Notes under the pieces: model-generated | Database searches by the model: none | The model's input: only the letters and a program-made list of their open reading frames with translations | Told to the model about the DNA's origin: nothing | Translations under genes and position numbers: made by a program | Assembly: GCA_040753875.1 (NCBI GenBank) | Contig: JBFMDV010000024.1 | Coordinates: 15,970 to 79,969 of the forward strand | Source: Candidatus Zixiibacteriota bacterium | GTDB lineage: Bacteria; Zixibacteria; MSB-5A5; GN15; FEB-12 | DNA length: 64,000 nt | Direction: 5' to 3' | Part shown: positions 33,705 through 64,000 of the stretch, piece by piece | How positions within the stretch are numbered: the stretch's first letter is position 1 | Layout: every line of letters starts with the position of its first letter

Positions 33705-34017
33705 GTATCCTCCACACAATGGTTTGATTCTGTTCGCACCTTTCGCCCATGGCCGGTCAGGGAGTTCGGTCCATGAATTCCGAGGGTAATCATCACGAGA
33801 TTATATCGGCCGGGCTTCGGCCGTTCAACAACAATTGCAACAAGTAGAATCGAGCACCCGGGTTCAGGAAAATCGTTGACAAAATAGTCTCATTTGACTT
33901 ATTTTAAGAGTGAAATAGGCGACAATGGCCGGGTATCTAATCAACCAACGGGTGGCTATCCTGTCGCCGCGTCCGGCTTCGACTTTCTTAGCGTCATACA
34001 TCGATCGGAGGTTGTGT

Positions 34018-34893
34018 ATGGTCCGCTCTCTATGGAGACTGATTGTCGCCATGGTGGGGCTGCTGGTGCTGGGGGTTACGGCATCCGCTCAGTCCTACTT
34101 GAGTACTTGGAATACATATGGGGGTGGCACAAACGGAAGCGTCATGGCGCTCACCGTCTTTGAGGGTGATCTGATCGCAGGGGGGGCCTTCACCGTCGCC
34201 GGGGACGTGGCCTGCCGATCGGTTGCGCGGTGGAATGGCAGCAATTGGCAACCGATTGGCCTTGGACTGCACGCATCAGTTGAAGATTTTGCCGTTTATA
34301 ATGGCCAGTTGATCGCCGCCTGTGAGCCGAGCATTTACCAAGGAGAGTATGTCGACACGGTGACGTTTTTGGCACGTTGGGACGGTGCCAACTGGATCGA
34401 TCTGGGATTCGGCTCTGGTCAGGATTTCAATTGCCTATTGGTATGGGGAACAAAGCTGGTGGTTGGAGGACATTTCGACAGTGTGGCCGGCGTGCCCACA
34501 AACGGGGTGGCCATGTGGGACGGTGTCAGTTGGCAACCGCTCGGCACGGGGCTCGATGGTCGAGTGATGGCACTTGCGGATTACAATGGCGATTTGATTG
34601 CGGCGGGTTGGTTCAAAACCAACGGCAACGGAGATACTGTCAACTATGTCGCCCGATGGGATGGTGCCTCGTGGCAGCCCATGGGAGCTGGATTCGCCTG
34701 GTGGAGTGAATGCCTGGGTATCCATAACGGTCAACTAGTGGCCGGCGGGCATATTCGGCTTGGTCCAGATCATACTAACGGGACTGTCATGGTTTGGAAC
34801 GGATCCGACTGGGAGGTATTTGGTGGACTGCTGGATGAGCACGAGATTCCAGTGTCTGGAGTCATTCAACGGGGAGCTGGTCATAGGGACTAA
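34018..34893 (+). CDS. secreted beta-propeller-repeat protein (apparent N-terminal fragment of a disrupted gene)
   Basis: ATG at 34018 follows GGAGG. A signal peptide (LIVAMVGLLVLGVTASA) is followed by at least 5 repeats of the form ARW(D/N)G..W.(P/D)(L/I)G.G....V.AL..YNG.LIAGG. Confidence 0.6.
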   Translation: MVRSLWRLIVAMVGLLVLGVTASAQSYLSTWNTYGGGTNGSVMALTVFEGDLIAGGAFTVAGDVACRSVARWNGSNWQPIGLGLHASVEDFAVYNGQLIAACEPSIYQGEYVDTVTFLARWDGANWIDLGFGSGQDFNCLLVWGTKLVVGGHFDSVAGVPTNGVAMWDGVSWQPLGTGLDGRVMALADYNGDLIAAGWFKTNGNGDTVNYVARWDGASWQPMGAGFAWWSECLGIHNGQLVAGGHIRLGPDHTNGTVMVWNGSDWEVFGGLLDEHEIPVSGVIQRGAGHRD

Positions 34894-35089
34894 TTGGATC
34901 GATGGATATCGCTGGACCGGCACCGTCTGGGAGCCCTTGGGACTACACGATATCTATGCCATGACTGTCCATGACAACACATTAGTCGTCGGGGGCACTC
35001 TCAATACGACAGAGCTGCACCGGATTGCCGGCAAACCTTCGTTCGATGTTGATTCTGACGGCACTTAGGATTACTACGACAACTGCCCG

Positions 35090-35875
35090 TTGGAGCCAAA
35101 TGCTAATCAGTCAGATGCCGACGGCGACCACATGGGCGATGTCTGCGACTCTTGCTATGCCTGCGAAAAAACAGTCTACCTTCATCACGCGAACGGCCAG
35201 AAATCCGGCGACACGCTTTTTGCAGGAACGCCGGTTCGGTTTATATTTGCTTTGAGCGGGCTTGCTCAGAATACGGTCGTAGGGATAGTAAATGCACTTC
35301 GGATGTACACCCCGGACGGCGCCTCATGGTCGGCTCCCGTTATCGATTCGGTGAACGGTTGGCACAACTACTTCGATGCGGCGGCCGTCTTGCGCAGTTC
35401 GGTTCAGTCTGTGGGGAACGATAGCCTGTCGGCAGGCGGATTTGCCATCGCCTCTGGCGGTTGGCCCGCTGGACTGAACCAAGCGATCTATCACATCACA
35501 GCGGCATTCACGTCGACATCGAACGGCAAGCACGTGTGCATAGATTCGCTCATGAATTATCCACCGTACGACTTCAAAATTGGCGGGGGTAGTGTACCCC
35601 CGATTATACCATACTGGCCCGGTCCCTATTGCTTCACAATCTACGCCTGCGGCCAGGGACTGGCAGGGAATGTGGATTGCGATCCGAGCGACGTTGTCGA
35701 TATCGGCGATCTGAGTGCGATGGTGGACAGACTGTTCGTCACTCTTGAGCCGTTTTGTTGCTATCCAGAGGCGAATTGCGATAATGATGCGGCGGGTGAG
35801 GTCGACATCGGTGATGTCACCGCGCTTGTTGAGCACTTGTTTTTCGGGCAGCAGATTACTCGCAGTTGTGAATAG
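35090..35875 (+). CDS. TSP3-repeat / dockerin-like C-terminal fragment of the same disrupted gene
   Basis: The track ORF starts at TTG with no SD of its own. The sequence continues a thrombospondin type-3 Ca-binding repeat that is interrupted by TAG at 35066. It ends in the duplicated D-x-D...DIGDL..(M/L)V(D/E).LF dockerin-like module. Confidence 0.5.
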   Translation: MEPNANQSDADGDHMGDVCDSCYACEKTVYLHHANGQKSGDTLFAGTPVRFIFALSGLAQNTVVGIVNALRMYTPDGASWSAPVIDSVNGWHNYFDAAAVLRSSVQSVGNDSLSAGGFAIASGGWPAGLNQAIYHITAAFTSTSNGKHVCIDSLMNYPPYDFKIGGGSVPPIIPYWPGPYCFTIYACGQGLAGNVDCDPSDVVDIGDLSAMVDRLFVTLEPFCCYPEANCDNDAAGEVDIGDVTALVEHLFFGQQITRSCE

Positions 35876-43006: not shown

Positions 43007-43021
43007 TGCAACCCCAATGCC
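43007..43021 (-). promoter_or_regulatory. sigma-54 (-24/-12) promoter candidate
   Basis: The minus strand reads cGGCAT-TGGGG-TTGCAt, against the consensus TGGCAC-N5-TTGCW. The GG and GC dinucleotides have canonical spacing. It lies about 80 nt upstream of the ATG at 42927 and is divergent from a sigma-54 activator gene. Confidence 0.55.
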
Positions 43022-43149: not shown

Positions 43150-44766
43150 TTGCTATCTTGTTATGGGCATTTCATGAAAGCAGAAGAGAATCAGATTCCC
43201 GAACATTCGGATGTCGAACGTCTGCGCAGAGCGTTGGGTGAGTTACGACTCATCAATAGTCTGATCGCGCGTATCAGTCAGGTGCGCGAGGTCAACCATA
43301 TCATGGATTTGATCCTGGGGGAGCTGGTGCGCGCCACGCAAGCGGACCAGGGACTCATCAATCTGGTGACCCCGATGGCCGAGGGGGATGCATTGACGAC
43401 GGTTGTTCGAACATCAAAATCGAAGGCTGAGACTACCCCGTTCAAAGCAAACGAACTGATTTGCGGCTGGGTGCTCACCAATCGCGTGTTGTTGAAGATC
43501 GATGATCTCGATCATGACGAGCGGTTTTCCGGTATGTCATCGTCGAACGGTCTGTTCAAGTCGGTCATTTGTTGTCCGATGCTGGTACGCAACGAAATCA
43601 TTGGCCTGACCAGTCTCGTCCGAAGTGCCGGCAAGGGTCCGTTCACCGATGAGCACTGCCGACTCGTAGGCATACTAACCTCGCAGTCGGCTCAATTGCT
43701 CAGCAACGCGCGTTTGCTGGAAGAACTGGCCGCCAAGAACGAACTCCTCGAATTGTCGCGGCAGAAACTCCACGATGAGTATGCCCGGCTGCAGTCCGAA
43801 GTCTCCGCCACGTTCGCTTTTGAGCAGATAGTCGGCAAATCGGCTCCGATGAAACGAGTCCTGGCGCTGGCGTCTAAGTTCAGCTGCACTGACTCGGCCG
43901 TTCTTATCGTGGGCGCCACCGGTACCGGCAAAGAACTGCTGGCCCGGGCCATCCATTACAATTCGCCCCGGAAGGATCGCCCGTTCATCATAAAGAATTG
44001 CGGCATCAAGACAGAATCCCTGTTGGAATCGGAGCTGTTCGGACATGTGAGAGGCGCCTTCACCGGCGCCGACCGCGAAAAACGGGGCCTTTTTAAGGAA
44101 GCCGATGGCGGCACGATATTTCTCGATGAGATCGGCGATGCTCCGCTCTCCACCCAGGCTGCGATCCTTCGGGTCATACAGAGCGGCGAGATCAGACCGT
44201 TGGGATCGACGAAGACCGAGTATGTGGATGTGCGGGTGCTGTCGGCGACGAACAAAAACCTGAAGGACGAGATTGCCAGGGGGAATTTCCGCGACGACCT
44301 CTACTATCGCCTCAATACGTTCACGCTGGAGTTGCCGTCTCTGGCGGAGCGCACCGAAGATATTCCGCTCCTTATCAATCACTTTCTTAAGCGGCTTCGG
44401 ATCAAGCTCGGCGTGGCGGAGCTGCACATCTCACCGGGCGCGCTTGAACGCTTCTTGAGATACGACTGGCCGGGCAACGTGCGTCAATTGGAACATGAAC
44501 TGGAGCGGGCGGCCGTGGTGTGCGGCTCGGACGGGGTGATCGAAGTGACCGACCTCTCCCCGGTTCTCGCGGCCCCGGCCTTTTCCGGCGAACAGTCGAA
44601 CTCTTATCGAGGAGAGCTCCGCCTGGTTGTCGAGCGAGTTGAGCGAGAGATGATAGCCCAGACGCTTAAGGAGCACGAGGGGAATATCATGCAAACGGCG
44701 GAGGCGCTGGGTCTGACGAGAAAGGGCCTGAAAGACAAAATGGACCGCTACGGCATCAAGCGCTAA
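43150..44766 (+). CDS. sigma-54-dependent transcriptional activator (GAF - AAA+ - Fis HTH)
   Basis: The AAA+ domain has Walker A GATGTGKELLA, ESELFGH and the GAFTGA loop. An N-terminal GAF-like sensor and a C-terminal HTH (GNIMQTAEALGLTRKGLKDKM) flank it. The TTG start at 43150 has GGAGG 8 nt upstream; an alternative ATG lies at 43174. Confidence 0.9.
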   Translation: MLSCYGHFMKAEENQIPEHSDVERLRRALGELRLINSLIARISQVREVNHIMDLILGELVRATQADQGLINLVTPMAEGDALTTVVRTSKSKAETTPFKANELICGWVLTNRVLLKIDDLDHDERFSGMSSSNGLFKSVICCPMLVRNEIIGLTSLVRSAGKGPFTDEHCRLVGILTSQSAQLLSNARLLEELAAKNELLELSRQKLHDEYARLQSEVSATFAFEQIVGKSAPMKRVLALASKFSCTDSAVLIVGATGTGKELLARAIHYNSPRKDRPFIIKNCGIKTESLLESELFGHVRGAFTGADREKRGLFKEADGGTIFLDEIGDAPLSTQAAILRVIQSGEIRPLGSTKTEYVDVRVLSATNKNLKDEIARGNFRDDLYYRLNTFTLELPSLAERTEDIPLLINHFLKRLRIKLGVAELHISPGALERFLRYDWPGNVRQLEHELERAAVVCGSDGVIEVTDLSPVLAAPAFSGEQSNSYRGELRLVVERVEREMIAQTLKEHEGNIMQTAEALGLTRKGLKDKMDRYGIKR

Positions 44767-50694: not shown

Positions 50695-53169
50695 TTACGG
50701 CACGCAGCACGGGGGCGGACCGCCGGCATTGACATATTCGACAAGATAAACGATGTCGGCGATATTGGCCACGTTGTCGCAGTTGGCATCGGCCGCTTCA
50801 CACGGCACAGCGCAAGGACCGTAATTGAAGTAGTAATTGATGATATGCGTGATATCGGCCATATTCACCAGCCCGTCACCGTTCATATCGCCACAGTCGA
50901 AATGGTTCACGATCAGGGTGTAATCTTCCACCTCGCCATACGTGGTTGTGCCGCATGGCGCGACCGTACCGGTATAGGTGATACGTATACGCATGATCAC
51001 CGTGTCGCTGCCGGGACTGTCGGGAGGCGTGATGACCCCTGTGTACGGCCCGTTGCCGGGAGTCCCGCTCACCGTGATCTGCTCGCCGGCGTCATAGAAG
51101 TCGGCATCGCCATTCCAGTCGATCCAGACACCGCATTGATCCGATGAATACGGATAGCCGTTCTTGACCGAGAAATTGTAGTCAAGCCGTTTCCACATCA
51201 CCGTGCTCAGATAGGTGTAGTCGGCGTAGTGATCGCAGCCGGAGCTGTTATCGATCGTCCCGACCGTTACCTGACTGATGTATTCATCGCAGATATTGCC
51301 CGAGGCGGGACACGGCTTGCACTTCACCGTATCGCCGGAGACGTGCAATGTGTACGGGCCTTCGGCGCCATAGGCTGGGTCAAGCAGCACCGGATAGTAA
51401 TACGTGCCGGGCATCAACGACGACCAGCGGATGGTGACGTTACCGTCGCCGCAGGTAGTGACGTCGAACGTCCCCGCGACGGTGATTGAATCGCACGGGC
51501 ATCCCATGGCCAGATTCAACCAGGCGTTGCCAAACGCAGGCGAGGTCGTGCAATAGTCAAGCGTTACATCCATGCACTTGTCGATGGTGAACGCATGCCA
51601 GACATGACCGTCCGGGAAAATCGAGCACTGATTGATCGCGCCCGTGTTGTCGCCCGTGAAGGTAGCCGGCAGCGTGACTGGGGTGACATCCTCGCAGAAG
51701 TTGTTCGGCGGGAGCGGGCTGCACTCGACCGTAAGCACTCCGTTGCCCACTGCTGTGCTGTACCCACCGATCTCGATGAGATACGTCTGGCCCATCGTTA
51801 CGGGTATGGTGACTTCGGATGACAATCCGCAGAAATCATCATTACAGGCCACTGGGGCGCCGGGCGGGCAACTGCAGCCATTGTAGACAGCCACTTTGGT
51901 GTCGTAGCTGGACCCGCACAAACTGACGCGGGCAGCACCGTCGCACGGAGCCGTGTAGCAGAACCAGATGTTGGCGCCATATATGCACGCGCCGGGTCCA
52001 TCGTGGGTCGCACCGATCGTCGTGAACGGAAGATTGACCACATCGCCGATGGGCGTCGCGTTAGCACACGAGTTGTTCGCAGGCCCTGGCGGCGGATCCT
52101 GGCACTTCAGCCAGGCGGTGTAATTCCACGGGCCGTTGGCACAAATGTACGTGGCGTCGAAATACCGTGGCGCCACGAAGAACGCGTAGGTCCCGCCGGG
52201 GAGATCCGCAGAGACGGTCACCGTGTCACAGGGGTTGCCGGTCGCGCTGATAATGCCCGTCGCACTGCCGCAGCCGCCCGTGAGGTCGACGATGTACAAC
52301 AGGACAGGAAAGTTCGCAACCGCTTTCCATATGACGGTCGTGTCGTTGGTGAAGCTCTTCAGATACCAATCGGTATCGCGGAAATCGTTGCTGGCCCAGG
52401 CGGTACCGCAAATGGTATCGCCGCAGTTGATGGTGCTGTAGACTTCGGGACTGGAGTTGCAGCCGCCGTTGGTCACATCAGCGCCATCGGTCACACAGGG
52501 TTCACCCTCGGCAATGCCACCGGGCGGGCAAGTCACGACACAGGCCGACACCGGTGTTATCGTGAGCACGTAATTTCCGAACGCGCTCCCATAACCGTCA
52601 ACCACGATATAATAGGTCGTGCCACCAACCAGGTTGAGATCATCAATGAACGAGCGATAGCCCGGGCAGGCATCGTCGTTGCATGCGTATGGTGCTCCCG
52701 GCGTGTATGCTCCCGCATACAAATAGACTTTCGTGTCATATCCGGAAGCACACAGGTCGATATCCACTGTCACATTGGCAGCCGGCGTAAACGAGTACAC
52801 GACGTCCGGGGCGGTGCCGCCCGAATAGGGACAGACTTCGTTGTAGTCGTTGGTGTATCCGGATGTCGTGCCCGCATCAGTATACGGAATGCCCGGGATA
52901 ACCGTCGCAGTGGCGATCACATCGCCACCCTGCGCCACACGGTTGGGACGGTTCTCATCGCCGTGGTATTCCGGTTTGGTCAGCGGGTAATTGAGAATAG
53001 TTAGACTGACGTCCTGTTCGGCCGCCTTCTGAGGGCTGGGCCCCGGCAGAGGTACAACCGATCTGGGCGCCTCGCCGGCGTATGCTGTCGATTGCCACAC
53101 CAGACAACAGAACGCCAGGGCGAATAGCATCATTGCGATGATGCGCACATTTTTTTTCAATTGGACCAT
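50695..53169 (-). CDS. secreted multidomain protein: PPC-like Cys-rich beta-sandwich modules + GEVED domain + dockerin-like C-terminus
   Basis: A signal peptide (IIAMMLFALAFCCLVWQSTAYA) is followed by repeated modules with (Y)DTKV.(L/V)Y ... ACNDD.C ... TY(Y/L)I..(D/G)GY ... GN.VLT. Then come ...YGEVEDYTLIV and a duplicated dockerin-like loop-helix ending PPCCVP. Confidence 0.8.
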   Translation of the reverse strand: MVQLKKNVRIIAMMLFALAFCCLVWQSTAYAGEAPRSVVPLPGPSPQKAAEQDVSLTILNYPLTKPEYHGDENRPNRVAQGGDVIATATVIPGIPYTDAGTTSGYTNDYNEVCPYSGGTAPDVVYSFTPAANVTVDIDLCASGYDTKVYLYAGAYTPGAPYACNDDACPGYRSFIDDLNLVGGTTYYIVVDGYGSAFGNYVLTITPVSACVVTCPPGGIAEGEPCVTDGADVTNGGCNSSPEVYSTINCGDTICGTAWASNDFRDTDWYLKSFTNDTTVIWKAVANFPVLLYIVDLTGGCGSATGIISATGNPCDTVTVSADLPGGTYAFFVAPRYFDATYICANGPWNYTAWLKCQDPPPGPANNSCANATPIGDVVNLPFTTIGATHDGPGACIYGANIWFCYTAPCDGAARVSLCGSSYDTKVAVYNGCSCPPGAPVACNDDFCGLSSEVTIPVTMGQTYLIEIGGYSTAVGNGVLTVECSPLPPNNFCEDVTPVTLPATFTGDNTGAINQCSIFPDGHVWHAFTIDKCMDVTLDYCTTSPAFGNAWLNLAMGCPCDSITVAGTFDVTTCGDGNVTIRWSSLMPGTYYYPVLLDPAYGAEGPYTLHVSGDTVKCKPCPASGNICDEYISQVTVGTIDNSSGCDHYADYTYLSTVMWKRLDYNFSVKNGYPYSSDQCGVWIDWNGDADFYDAGEQITVSGTPGNGPYTGVITPPDSPGSDTVIMRIRITYTGTVAPCGTTTYGEVEDYTLIVNHFDCGDMNGDGLVNMADITHIINYYFNYGPCAVPCEAADANCDNVANIADIVYLVEYVNAGGPPPCCVP

Positions 53170-54042
53170 AGAGCCATTTACTCCTGAGGGTTACCTCATC
53201 TTTCCACCTGGCAGTTCATTCGCTGTCGCCAGACGGTACCAACCACAAATTGTCAACCGGGATTGAGATTGAGTGCGAGCTTGTCCGCGACGCTCTTCAG
53301 CGAGGATGCTCGAAGAAGCCCAAGCCAGGTTGCCGAGCGGTAATTCTGGTCGCCTCAGCTCACATTCTGAGACCACCGGTGAAACACCGCGGGTCGCTTA
53401 GAATGAATTCGTTGTTCTTATTGCGCTGTGCTAAAAAGACTGCTGCCCAATACATAACCAATCAATCAAATCCTGTCAAGTCAGAATTCGCGTCGCACAT
53501 CAGGATTCTTCACATAATCCTATGTGACTTGTTTTGCACACACGACGCGCCCATCACATCGCGTGCCGCCTAATGTATTGCATACAAAAATTGGTCGCAT
53601 TGTCGCCAATTGGATGTCATGTACGTCACACGCGATAATCTGCCGTCCAGTCACCAATTGTCGGACTCGCGTCGACATTCGTGCTTGACTATGCGATGAA
53701 AAGTTATATGTTATGTCATACGCTTGACATCCGACCCGGTCGCCCGATGCCGGACTGCAACGAGATGAAACGGGTCGAATTCTGCGAAAGGGTCCTACGC
53801 CGCGAAACAACCCATTCGACGTCATGCGTTCGCTCGTGCGCCGCATGCGTCCAGGTGGTACACACATAACTTAACGTGCCGGCGACAACAACCACACACA
53901 GGTAACGTAGACCTCGCATTCAGTCTCGGAGCATGCTCCCGTGGCGTCTTAGCCCCGGTGGGAGCACGCTCACTTTACAGCTCATCTCCTTGTCAGGTGG
54001 TGATGTCGCGGCACCTCGTAACTCATTGGAGGTCAGGAGCTC

Positions 54043-57000
54043 ATGGGTTCAAGAACCGTCACAGGCATGGTCCTGGTTTTCTGGTGTGTCAGCGCCAGTG
54101 TACTGGGGCAGGTGAGCATCGGCGGCCAGCCGCTCACATTTGTCGACCAATCCCTCAGCGCGTCCATCCCTGTCAAACTGATGCCGTCGGTTGACAACCG
54201 CGCGCTTTTGGCCGAAGACGAGGCAGAGCAGTCCAAGGATGTTCCGCTTCGATTCGGCTACCCGTTCGATGTGAACTTCACCACGGACAATGCCGGCTTT
54301 TGGCAGATACTGCCCAACGGTGATCGACTTTGGCGGCTTCGCATCGCATCGCCAAGCGCATTCTCGATCAACCTTCTGTACGATCGGTTTTGGCTGCCGG
54401 AGGGCGCTAAGCTGTTTCTTTACAGTGAGGATCAGTCATTCCTCATCGGCGCCTTTACCTCGCAGAACAACAAGGCCGAAGGTCAATTCGCCACTGCTCC
54501 GGTCAAGGGGGACGTGTGCGTACTTGAGTACTATGAGCCCGCTTCGGCGAGTCAGCGCGGTGTGATCTCCATCTCGCGTGTCATCCACGCGTACCGAAAC
54601 CTGTTTGACCGCCATGCGCTCAAAGGAGTATTGGACTACGGGGACGCCGGCGCTTGCAACGTGAACGTGAACTGCCCCGAAGGAGCCGATTGGCAGGACA
54701 TCAAGCGGGGTGTAGCCATGATTCTCACTGGTGGCGGCGGCCGCCTGTGTTCGGGTACAATGATAAATAACGTGCGGCAGGACCTGACGCCATACTTCCT
54801 GACAGCCAATCACTGTCTCGGAGGGGAGACAAGCTGGATCTTCATGTTCAATTATGAGAGTCCGGGCTGCACCAATGTTGATGGCCCCACGTGGATGACG
54901 GTTCAGGGGAGTACGCTCCGCGCAAGCAATTCGTTTTCCGATTTCGGACTGGTGCAGCTGACCGAGCAGCCGCCGGACTCATACAATGTGTATTTTGTCG
55001 GCTGGAACGCGGTTGATTCCGCGGTCGATACACTCACGGACATCCATCACCCGCAGGGAGACATCAAGAAGATCTCGTTTGAATATGATGCAATTGCATC
55101 GACCGGTTACCTTGGCGCCCCGGGTTCGGGTGACAGCCACTGGCGCGTGGCCGACTGGGACGTCGGGACAACGGAGCCGGGATCCTCGGGTTCTCCCCTC
55201 CTGGATGACCACAAACGGATCATGGGACAGCTCCATGGCGGCTATGCGGCCTGCGGCAATAACGACGCCGACTGGTTCGGGAAATTCGCCAAGTCATGGA
55301 ATTACGGGACGACGGCCTCGACCCGTCTGCGCGATTGGCTCGACCCGGACAACACTGGAGCGCTGACGCTTGACGGTCGCCCGGCTGCCGGCATCTCAAT
55401 AACGCACACACCGCTTCAGGACACACAGGATACGCTCAACCCGTACGAGGTCATCTGTGTTATCAAGTCGAATACGCCGGTCGTGGCCGACTCACTGGTC
55501 CTTCATTATAATGTCGGGGCGGGATACGTCACGGCATTGCTGACGACCACCGGAGTGACAGACGAATACCACGCGTTCATCCCCCAACAGTCCCCCGGGA
55601 CTGATGTCAGCTACTTCATGACGGCTGCCAATACAAATGGTGATGCCGACACCACTCAAGTCTATACGTTTCGTGTCGTGGATTATGCGGTTAAGTTGAC
55701 CCCGGCATCGTTGACTCATACCGGCGCGGTGGGCGACACGGCCTGGTTCGATCTCAAGGTGAAGAACGCCGGCATCTATACCGACGACTACGCGTTGGCT
55801 AACTCAGGTAATATCTGGACCACGATCATTTTCGATGCCACCGGCACGAACGTCATTTCTTCCACGGGCACCATGCTGCCGAACGACAGTTTAGCCCTTA
55901 AAGTGGCGGTCGTCATTCCCCCGTCCCTTTATGGGGATAAGGACAGCACGATCCTTACTGCGACATCGACCGCGAGTCCTGCGATCAAGGCTGCCTCATC
56001 ACTGGTCACAATTTCGGCCGGACAACCGTTGAACATTCCGTTCTTCGACGATTTCCCGACCACAAGCATCAATATCGGCAAGTGGGTTCTCGCCAGCGGC
56101 TGCCAGGTAAACACGACCGGTTCGAATCCGCCCACACCGCCGTACTCAGTTGATTTCAACGGTGACGCTGTTGGCGCCGACACACTGATGTCACAGGCGA
56201 TCGATCTGGAAGGGCTTTCGGACATTGCCCTGACCTACTCCTATGAGCAGACCGGTGGCGGGGAGTCACCAGATGCCGGGGATGACTTGTTTGTGGAGTA
56301 CCTGGACAACACCGGCACGTGGGTGCTGATTAACCAGCATTTGGGCGCCGATCCGGACATGACGACTTTCCAAGAAGTGCTGACGTACCTCCCGGCTCCC
56401 GCTTACCACGCCGGGTTCCGAGTTCGGTTCCGGAACACCGCCACGGCCGGACTGTTCGACGACTGGTTTGTGGATGACGTGAAAGTCGATGTCAACTTCC
56501 CGCCGCAGATTTCAGTCTCCCCTCTGTCATACTCCGAGACGATTCAGAAGGGGGATTCGGTCACGCGTACACTGACGATTGACAATCTCGGACTGGGGAG
56601 CTTGCAGTTCGCCGCATCGGTTCAACTCATAGCCAAGCGGAACGACCTGCTTGAATCACTCCGCGCGGCGGGACTCCTGGAACCGGCACAGAGAACATAT
56701 CCTGAGGAATACCAGAATTACGTCGAGCAGAAGGGGGCCGATGACCCGCGGGTCGGCTTCCCGGTAACCAAGGGAGCCGGCGGCCCCGACGCCTTCGGAT
56801 ACTACTGGATCGACTCCGACCAGCCGGGCGGCCCGACCTTCAGTTGGACCGATATTTCGGCTACCGGGATAGATGTGGTCAATGATCTCGTGGATGACAC
56901 CGTATCCGGACCGTATCAGCTCGGCTTTGCGTTTTCATTCTACGGCAACACCTACACGCAGTTCTATATCGGTTCGAACGGGTTGATTGGATTCAATTCT

Positions 57001-57783
57001 GACAATATGAGATCGCTCACCAACGCCACAATTCCAACCGTCGCAACACCGAACGACTTTATCGCCTGGATGTGGGATGATTTGAACCCGAAGGATCCCA
57101 CCAATCCCGGTGCTCATGTCTATATCGATACCTCCGGCGGACAGTGTGTGATCCAGTTCACGCAGTATCCTGAGTACAGCGCGGCAGCCGGCGATGTCAT
57201 CACAGCGCAGGTCGTGCTTCAACAGGACGGCAGCATTCTTATCAAGTACCTCTCGATCGCTCCCGGATTCGATCTGACTTCGAGCACGATCGGTACGGAG
57301 AATGCAACGGGTACGGACGGCCTTCAGGTGACATTTAACAGCACCTACGGGCACAACAATCTGCTGCTCAAAATCTACGCTCCGTACCGTTGGCTCGACG
57401 TTGAACCTGCCAGCGGACTGGTGCTGAGCATGCAGCAGAAGCAGCTCAACGTCAAGTTTCGCACTGCCGAACTCGACAGCGGTATGCATACCGCCAACGT
57501 GATAATCTCGAACAACGATCCGGGGAACAGCCCGGTGACGGTCCCTGTACAGCTTCATGTCACACTGGCGCCTCAATATGTTTGCGGCGACGTTGACAAT
57601 AATGGCGTGGGACCGGACATTGGTGATCTCACCTACTTAGTGGGCTTCCTGTTCCTCGGCGAGGCGGCACCGCCGATACCACAGGCGGCCGATGTCAACA
57701 GCGACAGTGTGATCGACATAAGTGACCTCACCGTACTTGTTGAATTCTTGTTCATGGGCGGCCTTCCGCCCGTATGCCCATAA
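54043..57783 (+). CDS. secreted S1-family serine endopeptidase (lysyl-endopeptidase-like) with multiple beta-sandwich domains and dockerin-like C-terminus
   Basis: Signal peptide, then a lysyl-endopeptidase-type prodomain (PLRFGYPF...WRLRIASPSAFSINLLYDRFWLPEGAKLFLY). Catalytic residues lie in the contexts LTANHC and TEPGSSGSPL. The C-terminus is VCGDVDNNG...DIGDLTYLVGFLF...DVNSDSVIDISDLTVLVEFLFMGGLPPVCP. Confidence 0.85.
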   Translation: MGSRTVTGMVLVFWCVSASVLGQVSIGGQPLTFVDQSLSASIPVKLMPSVDNRALLAEDEAEQSKDVPLRFGYPFDVNFTTDNAGFWQILPNGDRLWRLRIASPSAFSINLLYDRFWLPEGAKLFLYSEDQSFLIGAFTSQNNKAEGQFATAPVKGDVCVLEYYEPASASQRGVISISRVIHAYRNLFDRHALKGVLDYGDAGACNVNVNCPEGADWQDIKRGVAMILTGGGGRLCSGTMINNVRQDLTPYFLTANHCLGGETSWIFMFNYESPGCTNVDGPTWMTVQGSTLRASNSFSDFGLVQLTEQPPDSYNVYFVGWNAVDSAVDTLTDIHHPQGDIKKISFEYDAIASTGYLGAPGSGDSHWRVADWDVGTTEPGSSGSPLLDDHKRIMGQLHGGYAACGNNDADWFGKFAKSWNYGTTASTRLRDWLDPDNTGALTLDGRPAAGISITHTPLQDTQDTLNPYEVICVIKSNTPVVADSLVLHYNVGAGYVTALLTTTGVTDEYHAFIPQQSPGTDVSYFMTAANTNGDADTTQVYTFRVVDYAVKLTPASLTHTGAVGDTAWFDLKVKNAGIYTDDYALANSGNIWTTIIFDATGTNVISSTGTMLPNDSLALKVAVVIPPSLYGDKDSTILTATSTASPAIKAASSLVTISAGQPLNIPFFDDFPTTSINIGKWVLASGCQVNTTGSNPPTPPYSVDFNGDAVGADTLMSQAIDLEGLSDIALTYSYEQTGGGESPDAGDDLFVEYLDNTGTWVLINQHLGADPDMTTFQEVLTYLPAPAYHAGFRVRFRNTATAGLFDDWFVDDVKVDVNFPPQISVSPLSYSETIQKGDSVTRTLTIDNLGLGSLQFAASVQLIAKRNDLLESLRAAGLLEPAQRTYPEEYQNYVEQKGADDPRVGFPVTKGAGGPDAFGYYWIDSDQPGGPTFSWTDISATGIDVVNDLVDDTVSGPYQLGFAFSFYGNTYTQFYIGSNGLIGFNSDNMRSLTNATIPTVATPNDFIAWMWDDLNPKDPTNPGAHVYIDTSGGQCVIQFTQYPEYSAAAGDVITAQVVLQQDGSILIKYLSIAPGFDLTSSTIGTENATGTDGLQVTFNSTYGHNNLLLKIYAPYRWLDVEPASGLVLSMQQKQLNVKFRTAELDSGMHTANVIISNNDPGNSPVTVPVQLHVTLAPQYVCGDVDNNGVGPDIGDLTYLVGFLFLGEAAPPIPQAADVNSDSVIDISDLTVLVEFLFMGGLPPVCP

Positions 57784-57910
57784 GCGGAGTATCAGGGTAT
57801 AGTAGAGGCTGTCCGCAAGTTAGTGAAGTTGCTGCACGTCCTGACCCCGACGAAGTCGAGGTTGTGACCTGACGACGTTTCTCATTGGAGGCAAAGGGTG
57901 TCAGTTCACA

Positions 57911-57933
57911 CGACCCCGATTGCATCGGGGTCG
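57911..57933 (+). terminator. stem-loop downstream of the S1 peptidase gene (weak terminator candidate)
   Basis: CGACCCCGA-ttgca-TCGGGGTCG forms a 9-bp stem with no clear U-tract. Confidence 0.3.
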
Positions 57934-58040
57934 CAGGAACTGACACAACTGATTTCGCGGCTTAGGGGACAACCTGATGACAACTCCGACGAAGCGCACG
58001 AACGTAACATGTATTGACCGAGGAAGGAACTGACAAACGC

Positions 58041-60428
58041 ATGCAGGTATGGCGACGACTGTTGAAGTGGGCTTTAGTGACATTTGTTGGTCTGGTGGTA
58101 GTATTGACTACCGCCTCAACCACGAGAGCAGATGAGACATATATACGGTTGACAGTCAAGTCTCCCGCCGAGATCGGGAAACTGACCAAACTGGTCTCCA
58201 TCGATAACGTCGTCGCCGACACGGTGTACGCGTACGCCAACGCGCGGCAACTGACTGAGCTTGGTGAAACAGGCTTCACTTACCAGCGGCTGCCGCATAC
58301 TTCCGACGGTTTTGTCCCGCGCATGGCGGACGGCAAAGCACCGTTCGCCTGGGACATTTATCCCACGTATGAGCTGTATGTTTCCATGATGCAGCAATAT
58401 GCGCAGAACTATCCGACCCTCTGCCGGCTGGACACGATCGGCTATTCTGTACAAGGACGGATGCTGCTCATGGCGACCATTTCAGACAATGTCAACACGG
58501 AAGAGGACGAACCGGAAGTGCTGTACACCTCGAGCATGCATGGTGATGAGTTGACCGGCTACGTGCTGATGTTGCGGCTGATTGATTCACTGCTGGTCGG
58601 GTACGGGGCGGACGCACCGACAATGGATATGGTGAACGGGCTGAAGATATACATCAACCCATTGGCCAATCCGGATGGCGCATACTATGGCGGCAACAGC
58701 AGTGTGAGTCTGGCTCGAAGGTACAACGCCAACGGCATCGATCTCAACCGCAACTATCCTGATCCACAGGATGGGCAGCACCCGGACGGCAATGCCTGGC
58801 AGCCTGAGACAATAGCGTTCATGAACTTCGCCGACAGCCACTATCCGGTCATCGCGGCGAATTTTCATGGCGGCGCTGAAGTGCTTAATTACCCGTGGGA
58901 CACCTGGGTCACCCGTCATGCCGATGATGCCTGGTTTCAACTTATATGCCGACAGTACGCGGATACCTGCCATATATATGCCCCGTCAGGTTATTTGACC
59001 GACCTCGACAACGGTATCACCAATGGATACGACTGGTACGAGGTTGATGGCGGCCGCCAGGACTATATGAATTACTGGCATGGCTGCCGGGAGATTACGA
59101 TCGAACTTTCATCGACCAAGCTCCTGCCGGCGGCCCAGCTTCCCAGCTACTGGGAATACAATCGGCGGTCGTTCATTCAGTATCTCCGCCAGGCATTCTA
59201 CGGCTTCCGCGGATTGGTGACCGGTTCGCAGACCGGCCTGCCTCTGGCAGCGACTATCCGAGTACTCGGCCATGATGTCGACAATTCGGAGATGTTCAGC
59301 GACCCCACACTCGGGGACTATCACCGCATGATCAAAGCCGGCACATACACTCTGGAGGCGAGTGCCGCCGGTTACCTGCCCGATACAATGGCAAACATCG
59401 CCATTACCGATGGTGGCACAGTACTCCTCGATTTCCAGCTCGACCCGATTCCCAGCGTCCCTTCCCTCGCCTTCGTCGCACATAGCGCCGATATGTTTGA
59501 GGTTGGCGACACCACCTCGTTCGGCGTCACGCTCGTCAACAATGGCGGGGGAGCCGCAACTTCAGCCGTCGGCACGTTGACCAGCTCGGACGGTCTGGTT
59601 ACGATACTGGTCGACACCTCGTCGTTTTCCCCAATACCACCGCTGGGTGGATCGGCCGTTTCGAGCAGCCTGTTTCAGTTCACGGTCTCCCCTCCGGCAG
59701 CTCCGGGGCGGGTCATACCTTTTACTCTGCATGTCACGGCAGACGGCGGCTATGCCGATTCAGTCTCGTTCACGGCTCTCCTCGGTCAACGGATCGAAAC
59801 GTTTGAAAGCGGGACTTTCACCCGATTCGCCTGGCAGGCCGGCGGCAATCAGCCCTGGATGATCAGCAGTGTCAGCCCGCATGAAGGAATTCGGGCTGCC
59901 CGGTCAGGTGTCATCGGCAACAGCCAAACGAGCCAGCTGCTTTTGACCGATGCCGATCTAATGGCCGGTTCGATTTCGTTCTGGTTCAGGGTGTCATCGG
60001 AGGCGGGCTTTGATTCACTCTCGTTCGCTATCGACGGTGTCAGCAAAGGGAAATGGTCCGGCGAGGTCCCCTGGACGCAGATGAGCTACCCGGTGACAGC
60101 CGGTACGCACACTTTCAAATGGGTTTACGCCAAAGATATCAGCGCAGCCTCGGGCAGTGATGCGGCGTGGATCGATTATGTCGTTCTCCCCTACCACGAC
60201 GTGCAGTCATGTTGTGTGGCCTCAACAGGCAACATCGATGGGGATACCGGAGATATTGTGGATATTTCCGACCTCTCGCTGATGGTAGACTATCTGTTCT
60301 TCGGGGGGAGTATTTCGAACTGCTTTGAGGAAAACGATACTGATCGATCCGGAAGTATAGATATCTCGGACCTGTCCGGACTGGTGGATTTCCTGTTCTT
60401 CAGCGGAACGCTGCCCGCTTGTCCGTAG
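58041..60428 (+). CDS. secreted M14-family zinc carboxypeptidase with accessory domains and dockerin-like C-terminus
   Basis: Zn-ligand contexts are SSMHGDELTG and ANFHGGAEV, with NPDG and LNRNYP also present. The C-terminus is CCVASTGNIDGDTGDIVDISDLSLMVDYLFFGG...NDTDRSGSIDISDLSGLVDFLFFSGTLPACP. I use the internal ATG at 58041 ahead of the signal-like segment. Confidence 0.88.
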   Translation: MQVWRRLLKWALVTFVGLVVVLTTASTTRADETYIRLTVKSPAEIGKLTKLVSIDNVVADTVYAYANARQLTELGETGFTYQRLPHTSDGFVPRMADGKAPFAWDIYPTYELYVSMMQQYAQNYPTLCRLDTIGYSVQGRMLLMATISDNVNTEEDEPEVLYTSSMHGDELTGYVLMLRLIDSLLVGYGADAPTMDMVNGLKIYINPLANPDGAYYGGNSSVSLARRYNANGIDLNRNYPDPQDGQHPDGNAWQPETIAFMNFADSHYPVIAANFHGGAEVLNYPWDTWVTRHADDAWFQLICRQYADTCHIYAPSGYLTDLDNGITNGYDWYEVDGGRQDYMNYWHGCREITIELSSTKLLPAAQLPSYWEYNRRSFIQYLRQAFYGFRGLVTGSQTGLPLAATIRVLGHDVDNSEMFSDPTLGDYHRMIKAGTYTLEASAAGYLPDTMANIAITDGGTVLLDFQLDPIPSVPSLAFVAHSADMFEVGDTTSFGVTLVNNGGGAATSAVGTLTSSDGLVTILVDTSSFSPIPPLGGSAVSSSLFQFTVSPPAAPGRVIPFTLHVTADGGYADSVSFTALLGQRIETFESGTFTRFAWQAGGNQPWMISSVSPHEGIRAARSGVIGNSQTSQLLLTDADLMAGSISFWFRVSSEAGFDSLSFAIDGVSKGKWSGEVPWTQMSYPVTAGTHTFKWVYAKDISAASGSDAAWIDYVVLPYHDVQSCCVASTGNIDGDTGDIVDISDLSLMVDYLFFGGSISNCFEENDTDRSGSIDISDLSGLVDFLFFSGTLPACP

Positions 60429-60434
60429 ACCGGG

Positions 60435-60968
60435 TCAATCGGTGACTTCCTGCTGGTCTTTCCAGTGCCGCCACTGGGCGGCGAATCGTCGCACCCAGTC
60501 GAAAACGGCCTGGTCCCCCAGATCACGGCCGGCTTTTTCGGATTCTATCCATTTGTGGCGTTCGATCTCCTTCATCTGCTCCTGGAGCTCTTTGGTCAGG
60601 CGGTCCTTGCGCCAGCGCGAGGCATGGTGGGCCAGCCAGTGGGCGATCGTGTACTCAAGGCCGACATCATACCCTGCCTGTCGCGACAGATAGTATTTGT
60701 GGACTTCGATGGCTTTCATCTCCGCCTTGGATAGCTGATACGAAGCGTATTTGTCTCCGGTAGAAGTCACCGATGTCACCTCCTTGGGGCACGAGAGGCC
60801 CACATGCCCCTTCCAGAATCGACCCCGTTTTGCTGTAATATACGCAGTCCAAGTAGTTAAGTCACGGACTTCTATTTTGTCGGGCAGTTTGGACAGCCCT
60901 GGAGCCGTTTTCCCGCCAAGTGAAGATGATTGTTGACAAATAAATCTCTTTTTGTCATATTTGACCAT
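60435..60968 (-). CDS. hypothetical protein with a tandem HK(Y/W)..S...AG.D.G motif
   Basis: The C-terminal 95 aa contain IEVHKYYLSRQAGYDVGLEYTIAHWL and IERHKWIESEKAGRDLGDQAVFDWV. The start is uncertain: ATG at 60968 or 60719. The track start at 61016 would overlap the divergent TPR-CHAT start. Confidence 0.45.
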   Translation of the reverse strand: MVKYDKKRFICQQSSSLGGKTAPGLSKLPDKIEVRDLTTWTAYITAKRGRFWKGHVGLSCPKEVTSVTSTGDKYASYQLSKAEMKAIEVHKYYLSRQAGYDVGLEYTIAHWLAHHASRWRKDRLTKELQEQMKEIERHKWIESEKAGRDLGDQAVFDWVRRFAAQWRHWKDQQEVTD

Positions 60969-61014
60969 CCGAAGGCCGTATTCCGGGGCTCGATGTGTGA
61001 ATTTCAATAGAAAC

Positions 61015-64000
61015 ATGGTCGCCGGAGCATTGACGCTGGTAAGCGTGTGTTTCCGGGTTGCGCCGGTGGTCGCACAGGATCGCCCGCTTGAGGCGGACCC
61101 GGCGATACAGCAGGATCAGTTGCAGGTCATCCGAGCCGATTCCCTCGCCCGTGTGCAGAATCATGCGGCAGCCATCGGTCTCGCCCATGAGGCACTCGGA
61201 ACCGTCCTCGACCGAACCGAGGACAAGGACACGCTGGCCATCTTGTGGCTTAATAAGCTCGGCATATACTTCTATCAGACTGCACAATACGATTCGGCCG
61301 AGTTCTACTGGCGCCGCTCTCTTCGCGCTACGGAGGATTGGTTCGGAAATGACCACCCATCGGTGGCCAAGAGCCTCAACAATCTCGCCGTTCTGCATCG
61401 CGACAAAGGGAATTACTCACTGGCATTGCCGCTTTATCTGCGGGCGCTTGAGATCTGGGAACACGCCTATGGACCGGACCATCAACTGGTGGCAACCGCC
61501 GCCAATAATCTTGGGTACTGCTACCACTATTTGGGGCGTTACGACGATGCCAGGGTTCTCTACGAGAGGGCGTTGGCCGGATGGACCAAAGCGTATGGGG
61601 CTGTGCACCACGATGTGGCAAGAGCCATCATCAACCTTGCGAACCTGGCACGTGACCTGGGTCGATTCGCCGAGGCCGAGCGGCGGCTGCGCGATGCCCT
61701 CAATACGATGCAGCACGTATATCAGACCGCTCACCCCGACATCGCCTACTGTCTGAACAACCTGGCGTTTGTCTGCTGGAAGCAGGCCCGCTACGACGAC
61801 GCGAAGGACCTGTATCGACAAGCGTTGGCGATCAATGAAAAGTCTCTTGGCCCGAATCACCCGTATGTGGCCTACAGTCTGCACGGACTGGCGAAATTGG
61901 AGATAGAGAGCAGGGATTACCCAGCGGCGGAGTCCCTCTTATTGCGAGCGCTGGCCGTTCGGCGGGAGACGTTCGGAAACGAGCATGTCGAAGTCGCTAC
62001 GATAGAGAATGACCTGGCGGCAATGTATCTGGACTACGGCCGCCGCGAGCCGGCCGGTCAGCTCGTCGAACATGCGCTCACTATTCGAGAGAGAGCCTAC
62101 GGTCCAGTGCATTCCGATGTCGCCAACAGCCTGTACACGCTGGCCACGCTGCGGCAGCAGGAGTTGAAACCGCGCGAAACCGAAAGTCTGACCACTCAGG
62201 CCGTCGCGGTCTGGGAGAAATGTCTTGGAAAGTCGCATGATAACGTGGCAGCCGGACTTGAACTCCTGGCTCAGTTGGCGCTTGAGAAGGGTCAACCAGA
62301 GGACGGTCTCGATGCGGCCCTCCGCGCTTGTGCGATCCGCCTAAGGAACTTCCGGGCCAACGGCATGGCGCTGTCCGAGCGTGATGCGCTCGCATTCGGC
62401 GGCTCGCTACGGCAATCACTCGATTTGACTCTCGAGATCTACTTCGGCATTGATGTTCCATCCCGCGCGGCAACTGAAACAGTATGCGACTTGATCCTGG
62501 GGACTAAAGGCATGGTGACCGACCAGTTGTTCGAACAGCGACAATTGAGTCGCGTGCGGCAGGACACTCTTTCGGGCAGATTGACTGAAACGCTGCGCCG
62601 GACGAAGTTCCGGTTGTCGGAACTGTATGCTCAGGGTCAGAGTGATGACGCTGTTGCGTACTCGCATGCCACTGATTCCCTCTCCAAAGTAGCGGAAGGT
62701 ATCGAGCAGGAACTGGCGCTGCTGGGCGGATCGTTCCCGGCACGGAGCGGTCAGCGGCCAGTGACGACACTGAACATGCGACAGGCGCTGCCGCAGGCTT
62801 CAGTCATGATGGAGTTCATCAGGTATCGACACCGTCATGCCGAGTATGCTGTCGACGGAGAGTCATATGCGGTCATCGTGCTGAGACCTGACGACCCGGA
62901 GATGCTGGTGCGCCTGGGCCCGGCAGATTCGTTGCATGTGCTGATCAATGAATATCGCCGACAATTCTCAGCTATCGCGAGCGGCGAAATAGCTCCGGAT
63001 TCCCGTGCTGAGACGACGTATCGGCGAATCGCGCAATCACTTTCCGATTTCGTGTGGCGACCGATAGCGCGGTATGTCAAACCAGGTGAACGGTTGTTCC
63101 TTGCCTGTGACGGCGCGTTAAATCTGGTTTCCTTTGCGTCTCTTCCTGTCGAAGATGATCGATACCTGATAGACATTCACCCCGTGCATTACCTGTCGTC
63201 CGGTCGCGATATCCTGAGACCGTCGGCCAGGAAGAAGGCGAGTAATCGATTGTTGGTGATCGGCGACCCGGACTACTTTGCCTGGGCCACGGAAAGCACC
63301 GGTAGGAGTGTTGATACACCTCGTGCGATTCAGACCCCGGGCGTGCGAGGTCAGGTCGCGCCATGTGTAACACTGGAGAATCTGGTGGCCAGTCCGCTCC
63401 CGGGGACACGGCGCGAAGTCGAGACGATAGCAGAGCAGTGGAGCCGGGGTCACGGAAACCAGATAACGATGCTGCTGGGAGCTGAGGCGTCGGAAGAGCA
63501 AGTTGTTGCCAGTATGCCATCGGCGGGCTTCATTCACATCGCCACCCACGGCTTCTTTCTAAGTGATACGTGCCTGCCGAATTGGCCGGCATCACGGCTA
63601 TCAGCGCTTGCTCCAACTGCAAGGCTGAATCCGCTCCTGTTAAGCGGGCTTCTCCTGGCCGGAGTGAACAATCGTACGAGCGGTTCGGGAAGTGGCGATG
63701 GGATACTCACCGCTTACGAAGTCTCGGCGCTTGACCTTGATGCCACAAGGCTCGTCTTCCTTTCAGCATGCGAGAGTGGTGCCGGGCAACTTGTGGACGG
63801 CGAAGGCGTGTACGGATTGCGGCGCGCATTCCAAATGGCGGGCGCATCGACCGTGGTAAGCTCGCTGTGGCCGGTATCAGATGAGCTGACCGGCGATTTG
63901 GTGGCCTGGTTCTATGAGAACCGGAGTTCTGTACTGCCCGATCGCATGCGCGATCTCCAGGTCCGGAAGCTCAACGAACTTCGAAGATCGAATCGGCCGA
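61015..64000 (+). CDS. signal-peptide-bearing TPR (TPR_12/KLC-like) - CHAT domain protein, 3' end cut by the window edge
   Basis: I read frame 1 codon by codon from ATG 61015 to 64000 and found no stop. It is absent from the ORF track for that reason. The N-terminus is MVAGALTLVSVCFRVAPVVAQD. At least 8 TPR units follow (HPSVAKSLNNLAVLHRDKGNY..A..LY.RAL). The CHAT His/Cys dyad contexts are FIHIATHGFF and LVFLSACESG. Confidence 0.85.
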   Translation, partial: MVAGALTLVSVCFRVAPVVAQDRPLEADPAIQQDQLQVIRADSLARVQNHAAAIGLAHEALGTVLDRTEDKDTLAILWLNKLGIYFYQTAQYDSAEFYWRRSLRATEDWFGNDHPSVAKSLNNLAVLHRDKGNYSLALPLYLRALEIWEHAYGPDHQLVATAANNLGYCYHYLGRYDDARVLYERALAGWTKAYGAVHHDVARAIINLANLARDLGRFAEAERRLRDALNTMQHVYQTAHPDIAYCLNNLAFVCWKQARYDDAKDLYRQALAINEKSLGPNHPYVAYSLHGLAKLEIESRDYPAAESLLLRALAVRRETFGNEHVEVATIENDLAAMYLDYGRREPAGQLVEHALTIRERAYGPVHSDVANSLYTLATLRQQELKPRETESLTTQAVAVWEKCLGKSHDNVAAGLELLAQLALEKGQPEDGLDAALRACAIRLRNFRANGMALSERDALAFGGSLRQSLDLTLEIYFGIDVPSRAATETVCDLILGTKGMVTDQLFEQRQLSRVRQDTLSGRLTETLRRTKFRLSELYAQGQSDDAVAYSHATDSLSKVAEGIEQELALLGGSFPARSGQRPVTTLNMRQALPQASVMMEFIRYRHRHAEYAVDGESYAVIVLRPDDPEMLVRLGPADSLHVLINEYRRQFSAIASGEIAPDSRAETTYRRIAQSLSDFVWRPIARYVKPGERLFLACDGALNLVSFASLPVEDDRYLIDIHPVHYLSSGRDILRPSARKKASNRLLVIGDPDYFAWATESTGRSVDTPRAIQTPGVRGQVAPCVTLENLVASPLPGTRREVETIAEQWSRGHGNQITMLLGAEASEEQVVASMPSAGFIHIATHGFFLSDTCLPNWPASRLSALAPTARLNPLLLSGLLLAGVNNRTSGSGSGDGILTAYEVSALDLDATRLVFLSACESGAGQLVDGEGVYGLRRAFQMAGASTVVSSLWPVSDELTGDLVAWFYENRSSVLPDRMRDLQVRKLNELRRSNRP

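Follow-up and report, generated by a model that had tools for sequence, protein, structure and literature searches.

What is the short, cysteine-flanked module in which several otherwise dissimilar secreted proteins end, when their genes lie close together in a Candidatus Zixiibacteriota bacterium (assembly GCA_040753875.1, contig JBFMDV010000024.1), and what might it do there? The stretch of DNA considered here, positions 15,970 to 79,969 of that contig (64,000 nt; 'the window' below), contains four open reading frames (ORFs) ending in one homologous module of c. 70 aa (68-77 aa each): three consecutive genes, for proteins 1, 2 and 3, and a fourth gene that is disrupted (Table 1). Judged by sequence comparisons and predicted structures, the shared tail is a three-helix, type-I-style dockerin and not a type IX secretion system (T9SS) C-terminal domain (CTD). 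Its flanking cysteines appear suited to hold it closed, and we consider it reasonably likely that it works as a docking tag for a set of secreted peptidases and adhesin-like proteins.

A preliminary description of this DNA had held that the three consecutive secreted proteins and the disrupted gene share the terminal module, and the ORFs, peptides and coordinates involved all stood up to re-examination, as did the terminal residues V-C-P, A-C-P and C-C-V-P of the intact proteins. A hidden Markov model (HMM) of the four modules, run against the six-frame translation of the window, recovered exactly these four (E 4e-30 to 6e-33) and no fifth copy (next match E > 4). When the HMM was built from the modules of other organisms only, the window modules scored 100.6, 69.0, 57.5 and 25.7 bits, the last of these belonging to the disrupted gene, whose module gave 100.6 bits with the window-derived HMM. 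Taken together, the scores from the two HMMs indicate that the similarity of the modules reflects homology rather than chance.

Protein 1 passes the 22.9-bit gathering cutoff of the Pfam model Dockerin_1 (PF00404), scoring 26.6 bits at full length, and its module by itself reaches 32.2. The module of protein 2 reaches 16.9 bits, and there was no Dockerin_1 match for those of protein 3 and the disrupted gene, the protein 3 module giving only weak EF-hand matches. AlphaFold2 models were built, from alignments of homologues, for the modules of proteins 2 and 3 only, with predicted local distance difference test (pLDDT) scores of 95.6 and 92.1, the second for a module that Pfam misses. Foldseek comparison with the PDB placed dockerins, and nothing else, at ranks 1-33 for both models alike. 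The protein 2 model gave template modelling (TM) scores of up to 0.84, with a best root-mean-square deviation (rmsd) of c. 1.5-1.8 Å; for protein 3 the TM scores were 0.57-0.73 on query length and 0.39-0.85 on target length (closest rmsd 1.4-3.0 Å). The earlier suggestion that the module resembles a dockerin is thus upheld on two counts, the Dockerin_1 threshold being passed by protein 1 and the modelled modules matching only solved dockerins, with TM c. 0.7-0.85 (0.78-0.85 for the best matches).

The sequence of the module tells the same story. Its profile matches PDB dockerins (4FL4, E 2e-8), and it consists of two tandem segments of c. 22 residues, each with a 12-residue EF-hand-like calcium loop followed by a helix, which is the pattern of type I dockerins. 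In 569 module instances, taken from the 150 best profile matches, the calcium-ligand positions 1, 3, 5 and 9 are D or N, and position 12 is D in 568/569 and 569/569; the folded module may well be calcium-dependent. Loop 1 has one or two extra residues in the modules of proteins 2 and 3 and of the disrupted gene. Despite the unrelated cargo, the helix faces of both repeats (D-L-T-Y-L-V-D-Y-L-F) show strong conservation, which points to a binding function in common. It is the Pfam pass, the predicted fold, the Foldseek results, the profile matches and the conservation of calcium ligands that underlie the assignment to type-I-style dockerins.

Other identities fit less well. No match to a T9SS CTD (Por_Secre_tail, PF18962, or CHU_C), to PEP-CTERM or to other sorting models was found in the four proteins or their modules, even at E <= 10, and the models are alpha-helical; the library that gave this negative does find Por_Secre_tail among relatives, in some cases following dockerin modules. 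The preliminary description had named such a CTD as an identity that would refute the dockerin reading, and the module is not one: some relatives hold a dockerin and a genuine Por_Secre_tail within one protein. Nor is it a canonical EF-hand pair, since the relevant models (PF00036, PF13405, PF13202) give 11-16 bits against cutoffs of c. 25, and the models of the protein 2 and 3 modules, unlike an EF-hand, have no entering helix before either loop. The NCBIfam model NF041540, 'GC-type dockerin domain-anchored protein', gives the protein 1 module 17.8 bits against a curated cutoff of 29, and finds no match in the other three window modules.

The most distinctive feature of the module is its cysteines. 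The terminal one, lying 0-4 residues from the C-terminus, is invariant in 19/19 aligned modules, and in relatives both flanking cysteines are found in 114 modules out of 128, neither in seven and only one in seven; the proposal that conservation of the cysteines be checked in homologues has therefore been answered positively. The window modules contain two, four, six and six cysteines, always an even number, and in the three intact genes the patterns of two, four and six are kept position for position in orthologues (65-75% whole-protein identity), with all six cysteines of the protein 1 module retained in its Zixibacteria orthologue. Across the 569 instances the cysteine before loop 1 and that of the C-terminal tail occur together (two-by-two counts 135, 69; 15, 350; odds ratio 46), and the association persists with one module per protein (22, 20; 4, 104; odds ratio 28.6, p 3e-11), the p-values being indicative only, as the samples consist of related sequences. 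Cysteine parity across homologues (72 even against 45 odd; 379 against 190) is confounded by adjacent TSP3 cysteines falling within the counting window, and was not used. Each unit of the internal tandem arrays has the pair as well, nine times in P0021 and twelve times in P0022, which implies that the cysteines are a feature of the domain rather than of the protein C-terminus, and argues against a processing signal. Of the two roles originally offered for them, a stapling disulfide or a processing signal, the first thus agrees with the evidence and the second does not. (P0022 is annotated as a Parcubacteria 'peptidoglycan-binding protein', so cysteine-flanked tandem dockerin arrays occur outside Zixibacteria, including in a bacterium of the candidate phyla radiation.)

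A structural precedent for such a pairing is provided by the 4FL4 dockerin, in which Met(-1) and the C-terminal Pro form an 'intramolecular clasp' (PMC3821032). Clasps of this sort between N- and C-terminal parts stabilise dockerins and support cohesin binding, and the same paper mentions no disulfide clasp (PMC3821032). In a profile alignment, the cysteine at position -1 of the present module falls on that methionine. In the protein 3 model, residue 73, which precedes the terminal cysteine, forms a beta-bridge with residue 8 in the N-terminal strand. By the internal two-fold repeat of the protein 2 module, the equivalents of Cys 71 and Cys 7 are linker residue 38 and residue 41, three positions apart, from which a close approach of the two cysteines would be predicted; and in the four-cysteine subtype the linker cysteine is the exact repeat-equivalent of the terminal one. 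From sequence and models together, the flanking cysteines probably form an intradomain disulfide, a covalent version of the clasp. A search of the literature on dockerins and disulfides found no description of a cysteine-clasped dockerin.

How widely is the module spread, and on what kinds of protein? Searched with a profile of the module, 1.84 billion representative proteins yielded 50,051 matches at E <= 1e-3 (representative clusters that include dockerins in general) and 15,846 at E <= 1e-10. With a narrow ten-residue pattern, 307 modules were confirmed in a collection of species-representative genomes; the best 80 of the 307 came from about two dozen metagenome-assembled genomes (MAGs) that bear the label Zixiibacteriota, 'Ignavibacteriales' or GN15 or are unclassified, and there were often at least ten to a MAG. 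Among the 120 best homologues of protein 3, many of them named Candidatus Zixiibacteriota or GN15, the module is present in 117 and C-terminal in 107. Seventy-nine loci from relatives contain 131 module ORFs, often clustered (two to five per 12-kb locus); the module is C-terminal in 122 of the 131, and 113 of these 122 have a cysteine among the last six residues. One contig, AMWB02163660 of assembly GCA_000315315.2 (locus L001), which we take to be the Zixibacteria RBG-1 aquifer assembly, keeps the gene order glutaminyl-tRNA synthetase / GEVED protein / lysyl endopeptidase / M14, with protein identities of 80, 75, 71 and 65%, respectively.

The cargo is not dominated by carbohydrate-active enzymes (CAZymes), as that of a cellulosome would be: in the window it comprises peptidases of families S1 and M14, a GEVED protein and a beta-propeller, and the earlier statement that two of the proteins are peptidases (S1 lysyl endopeptidase-like and M14) rather than glycoside hydrolases holds by structure-database, Pfam and motif matches. 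In a Pfam census of 67 module proteins from relatives, TSP3 (17), M14 (11), FG-GAP (7), PKD (7), S8 (4) and PAD_porph (4) were accompanied by C25, M28, M43, arylsulfotransferase and BNR, with beta-propellers among the cargo; no glycoside hydrolase family appeared among the 25 listed of the 43 families. NCBIfam adds 'choice-of-anchor' domains B, X and J. Dockerin_1 itself detects only 7 of these 67 proteins at E <= 1e-4 (loci L003-L081), which means that the dockerin content of these lineages is badly under-annotated. The NCBIfam model NF045500, 'Omp28-related selenoprotein', matched 21 of the 67 below its cutoff (the window gives 13-31 bits against a cutoff of 200), and we think that it does so through the TSP3 and dockerin-like tail, since it aligns to the window modules and to the TSP3 repeat of the disrupted gene. 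NF041540 was absent from the 25 listed of the 47 families matched in the relatives.

Genuine T9SS CTDs were found in 7 of 76 neighbouring secreted proteins of the relatives' loci, and single proteins with both a dockerin and an above-threshold Por_Secre_tail exist. Three small ones (P0045, P0047 and P0076, homologues from the search of representative proteins) consist of a signal peptide, three or four dockerins and a T9SS CTD, with no catalytic domain; in others the order is cargo, then dockerin, then T9SS CTD, L032:3-2591 and L043:434-3100 being among the proteins that have dockerin and CTD. Surface-anchored multi-dockerin proteins with a CTD could be scaffolds or adaptors.

From all this, we suggest that the module represents a large, poorly annotated dockerin subfamily in which a disulfide would replace the non-covalent clasp between the residue before loop 1 and the C-terminal tail, with one or two further disulfides in some subtypes. 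As the proteins bear Sec-type signal peptides, oxidation of the cysteines would be expected in the periplasm or extracellularly, and the resulting lock would keep the module folded amid the proteases of a harsh environment outside the cell. It is most likely a protein-protein docking or anchoring tag and not a cleaved secretion signal, and it would hold the protein-degrading secretome, along with adhesin-like proteins, on a cell-surface receptor. That a disulfide-clasped dockerin of this kind serves as the docking or anchoring tag of a protease- and adhesin-rich secretome, with its receptor encoded elsewhere, seems to us the better bet, to be held with moderate confidence.

Several observations weigh against it. 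Three of the four window modules fall under the Dockerin_1 cutoff, and the reading does not account for the passage of a dockerin-tagged protein with no T9SS CTD through a diderm's outer membrane. Residue 70 of the protein 2 model, just before the terminal cysteine, bridges residue 45 in loop 2 and not the N-terminal strand, and for this reason the connectivity of the putative disulfide must stay conjectural. The searches for a putative partner were negative. A Pfam scan of 35 window proteins gave no Cohesin, in agreement with the preliminary description (the remaining proteins were judged by eye to be housekeeping, of Suf, IOR and Pta-Buk type). Clustering of 573 genes from the window and the 79 loci yielded no recurrent neighbour without the module, only housekeeping or sensor families, and in the 76 neighbouring secreted proteins of relatives no receptor or cohesin family was seen among the families listed (25 of 89 and 25 of 78). 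A phmmer search of 889 kb (the window and the relatives' loci) with the CipA cohesin, a query validated against 1AOH, gave no match (best E 0.061), this being a single clostridial query of low sensitivity. Two marginal cohesin matches, in P0049 and P0058, fell in proteins made up of dockerins only. These negatives are weak ones, resting as they do on one insensitive query and on neighbourhoods rather than genomes.

How, then, do other explanations compare? The preliminary description had envisaged a cellulosome-style assembly. On such a classical model, a cohesin-bearing scaffoldin encoded elsewhere in the genome, and perhaps anchored through the T9SS as has been suggested for Candidatus Stygibacter (Cloacimonadota), would assemble a surface 'peptidosome'. 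It would be in keeping with the dockerin fold, with the many dockerin-tagged secreted enzymes per genome and with the T9SS CTD proteins encoded beside dockerin genes in relatives, and there is a precedent in a candidate phylum of the FCB (Fibrobacteres-Chlorobi-Bacteroidetes) group, for which one report describes S8 and C25 peptidases that have dockerins at the C-terminus, alongside a scaffoldin rich in cohesins and bearing a CTD (PMC8542988). Set against this are the lack of any cohesin in the window scan, the 79 loci of relatives and the 889 kb searched by phmmer, and the library of literature searched, in which we found no paper linking Zixibacteria with dockerins (none of the top results for cohesins or cellulosomes mentioned Zixibacteria). 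The model therefore lacks support so far and we regard it as rather doubtful, although it could plausibly be a special case of the docking-tag reading and does not contradict it. A more radical reading, in which the cysteine-clasped dockerin would tag proteins for a surface-display system that Zixibacteria and allied uncultured bacteria run independently of cohesins, a 'peptidosome' with dozens of peptidases and adhesins per genome held on a receptor that is not a cohesin, is unlikely in our estimation; one candidate receptor would then be the class of T9SS-anchored multi-dockerin proteins like P0045, P0047 and P0076, implying assembly of dockerin with dockerin.

The position of the module invites another thought, namely that it is a C-terminal sorting or export signal of the T9SS CTD, PEP-CTERM or MYXO-CTERM kind, in which the near-terminal cysteine would be where processing takes place or where a lipid or glycan is attached, and export would be followed by removal or modification of the module. 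The extreme C-terminal location in 122 of 131 cases, with a cysteine in the last six residues in 113, would suit such a role, as would the sharing of cargo classes with the T9SS CTD neighbours, the 'choice-of-anchor' domains and the weak match of protein 1 to a model for dockerin domain-anchored proteins. Cellulosomal dockerins are normally C-terminal too, however; in other lineages, Parcubacteria among them, tandem runs of 9-12 cysteine-flanked modules lie within proteins, and the module also stands upstream of a genuine T9SS CTD in the same polypeptide; and an even number of cysteines, with those at the flanks co-varying, fits disulfides and not a single modified residue. A sorting signal is thus improbable. 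Still harder to credit is a module with no partner at all, whether a domain stabilised by calcium and disulfides that confers stability or solubility, or a binder of polysaccharide or mineral surfaces. The failure of locus clustering and phmmer to reveal a partner is what it would predict, and non-cellulosomal dockerins with no known cohesins are widespread (as the 50,051 matching clusters may illustrate); but the helix faces are strongly conserved across unrelated cargo, and the multi-dockerin proteins with T9SS anchors are difficult to explain as stabilisers, which leaves this with only a very small share of our belief.

Table 1. The dockerin modules, the proteins that carry them and their other domains (positions in the window; coordinates of all four modules verified by translation)
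Feature	Position (nt)	Strand	Length or position (aa)	Description
Protein 1	50695..53169	-	824	Secreted, Cys-rich, non-catalytic, adhesin-like; PPC-like/GBD modules, GEVED, C-terminal dockerin
GEVED domain of protein 1	50914-51135		679-752	
Module of protein 1	50698..50901	-		6-Cys subtype FDCGD...GPC..VPC...DANCD...PPPCCVP
Protein 2	54043..57783	+	1246	Secreted S1 lysyl endopeptidase; catalytic domain, long beta-rich/Ig-like regions, C-terminal dockerin
Catalytic domain of protein 2	54643-55404		201-454	
Module of protein 2	57565..57780	+		2-Cys subtype YVCGD...GGLPPVCP
Protein 3	58041..60428	+	795	Secreted M14B zinc carboxypeptidase; M14B, CarboxypepD_reg, unassigned domains, C-terminal dockerin
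M14B domain of protein 3	58380-59165		114-375	
CarboxypepD_reg domain of protein 3	59208-59441		390-467	Transthyretin-like
Module of protein 3	60195..60425	+		4-Cys subtype SCC...TGNxD...NC(linker)...LPACP
Disrupted fourth gene	33925..35875	+		Signal peptide, beta-propeller (Rax2/DUF5122-type repeats), TSP3-like repeat, unknown region, dockerin
Module of disrupted gene	35642..35872	+		6 Cys; most divergent copy; Ala at loop 2 position 5

Turning to the individual proteins, a library scan revealed no catalytic domain in protein 1 and placed it as a GEVED protein; its N-terminus (MVQLKKNVRIIAMMLFALAFCCLVWQSTAYA) resembles, by eye, a Sec signal peptide, as do the N-termini of proteins 2 and 3. 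Protein 2 is identified as a lysyl endopeptidase by its match to 4NSV/1ARB (E 2e-46) and to Pfam Trypsin_2, with the His motif TANHC (aa 254) and the Ser motif GSSGSP (aa 380). Protein 3, which has an alternative TTG start at 58014 and is likewise 795 aa long in the database gene call P0171, matches Pfam Peptidase_M14 (E 2.1e-57) and 1H8L, carboxypeptidase D domain II (E 2.5e-61), and retains all of the zinc and catalytic motifs HGDE, FHGG and TIELS. Characterised M14B enzymes of the CPD/CPM/CPN-like group remove C-terminal basic residues. The lysyl endopeptidase and the M14B carboxypeptidase, judged by their sequences, suggest a coupled route by which free lysine might be released from proteins. 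The gene for the former lies directly upstream of that for the latter, and the pair is kept on the Zixibacteria contig L001.

The reading frame of the fourth gene is shifted near 34800-34890 and interrupted by an in-frame TAG (35066-35068). The match to the 'selenoprotein' model NF045500 raised the idea of selenocysteine at this stop, which was rejected, the codon being TAG and not TGA and lying within the TSP3-like repeat. Flanking the disrupted gene, at 31696-33719 and 35943-43017, are genes for signal-peptide proteins or lipoproteins with no Pfam family (472, 528, 248, 657 and 464 aa), which surround the genes for an LpoB-like lipoprotein (33108-33719) and for a beta-ketoacyl synthase (37526-38791); no Cohesin match was obtained among these secreted proteins and lipoproteins.

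The divergent genes for proteins 1 and 2 are separated by c. 260 bp of non-coding DNA (53136-53391) that is 75% identical to its counterpart in L001 and has no Rfam match. The 173-aa ORF that has been called in L001 in the interval between the orthologues is probably no gene, as the conservation is at the DNA level only, and the interval may be a shared promoter or regulatory element. A few kilobases upstream of the dockerin cluster, a sigma-54 activator gene with a GAF domain (43150-44766) adjoins a Ser/Thr kinase gene with TPR (44770-47367), and these are possible regulators. On the other side, synteny with L001 stops after a DUF4032-like gene (60435-61016): the downstream genes of L001 (for DUF4342, 800-aa and 430-aa proteins) had no tblastn match anywhere in the window, and 61000-64000 contains no convincing ORF, tRNA or Rfam family, with low G+C content at third codon positions in its ORFs.

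What follows if the tag reading is right? Dockerins are the standard plug of cellulosomes and are widely used in synthetic biology, so a natural disulfide-clasped subfamily, if confirmed, would offer a ready-made and more robust plug. Dockerin-like modules matching the profile are carried by at least thousands of sequence clusters, and the subfamily is largely invisible to Pfam. In Zixibacteria-like bacteria of sediments and aquifers, the module marks a secreted proteolytic and adhesive proteome, and recognising it should improve the prediction of extracellular enzymes in lineages that have been pointed to before as sources of exported peptidases (PMC6365825). The hunt for the missing receptor also gains a definite form.

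Among known systems, the closest in structure are the type I dockerins of clostridia and ruminococci (PF00404; 4FL4, 1OHZ, 4DH2, 5LXV), which have the same duplicated F-hand, three-helix fold (TM 0.7-0.85) and internal two-fold repeat; like the present modules, cellulosomal type I dockerins are found at the C-termini of secreted enzymes, and the residue before the conserved Gly contacts the C-terminal tail (PMC3821032). The differences are several. Here the clasp positions are occupied by cysteines (a putative covalent clasp), with extra cysteine pairs in some subtypes, a conserved G-G-P-x-P motif follows both helices, and loop 1 is often one or two residues longer. The cargo consists of peptidases and adhesin-like proteins and not CAZymes, and the host belongs to a Zixibacteria-like lineage of the FCB group, presumed to be diderm, whose relatives encode T9SS cargo. 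Most copies lie below the Pfam threshold (7 of 67 detected), and no cohesin was found in the window or the loci of relatives. Two curated models, NF041540 and the C-terminal part of NF045500, align in their C-terminal regions with the window modules, at scores far below their cutoffs. The module is thus a variant of a known dockerin, and the idea of an assembly of peptidases through dockerins has already been proposed, for Cloacimonadota. Candidatus Stygibacter of that phylum (Williams et al., 2021; PMC8542988) is likewise an uncultured member of the FCB group and has S8 and C25 peptidases and other enzymes with signal peptides and C-terminal dockerins, a link to the T9SS being plausible in both. 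A scaffoldin of 3,755 aa with tandem cohesins and a CTD is reported there (PMC8542988), unlike here, where no scaffoldin-type partner was found; cysteine clasping is not mentioned in the passages of that paper on dockerins and cohesins (PMC8542988).

In its repertoire, the system is reminiscent of Porphyromonas gingivalis, whose T9SS cargo includes Kgp, CPG70, PPAD and the gingipains, with CTDs that are cleaved and proteins that become localised at the surface. A Lys-specific endopeptidase, an M14 carboxypeptidase acting on basic residues, a peptidylarginine deiminase, C25 peptidases and C-terminal tags are common to both. The tag, however, is here an alpha-helical dockerin and not a beta-sandwich CTD, and the lysyl endopeptidase is of family S1 and not C25. 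With that reservation, the lysyl endopeptidase and M14B carboxypeptidase encoded side by side in the window recall the pairing of Kgp with CPG70.

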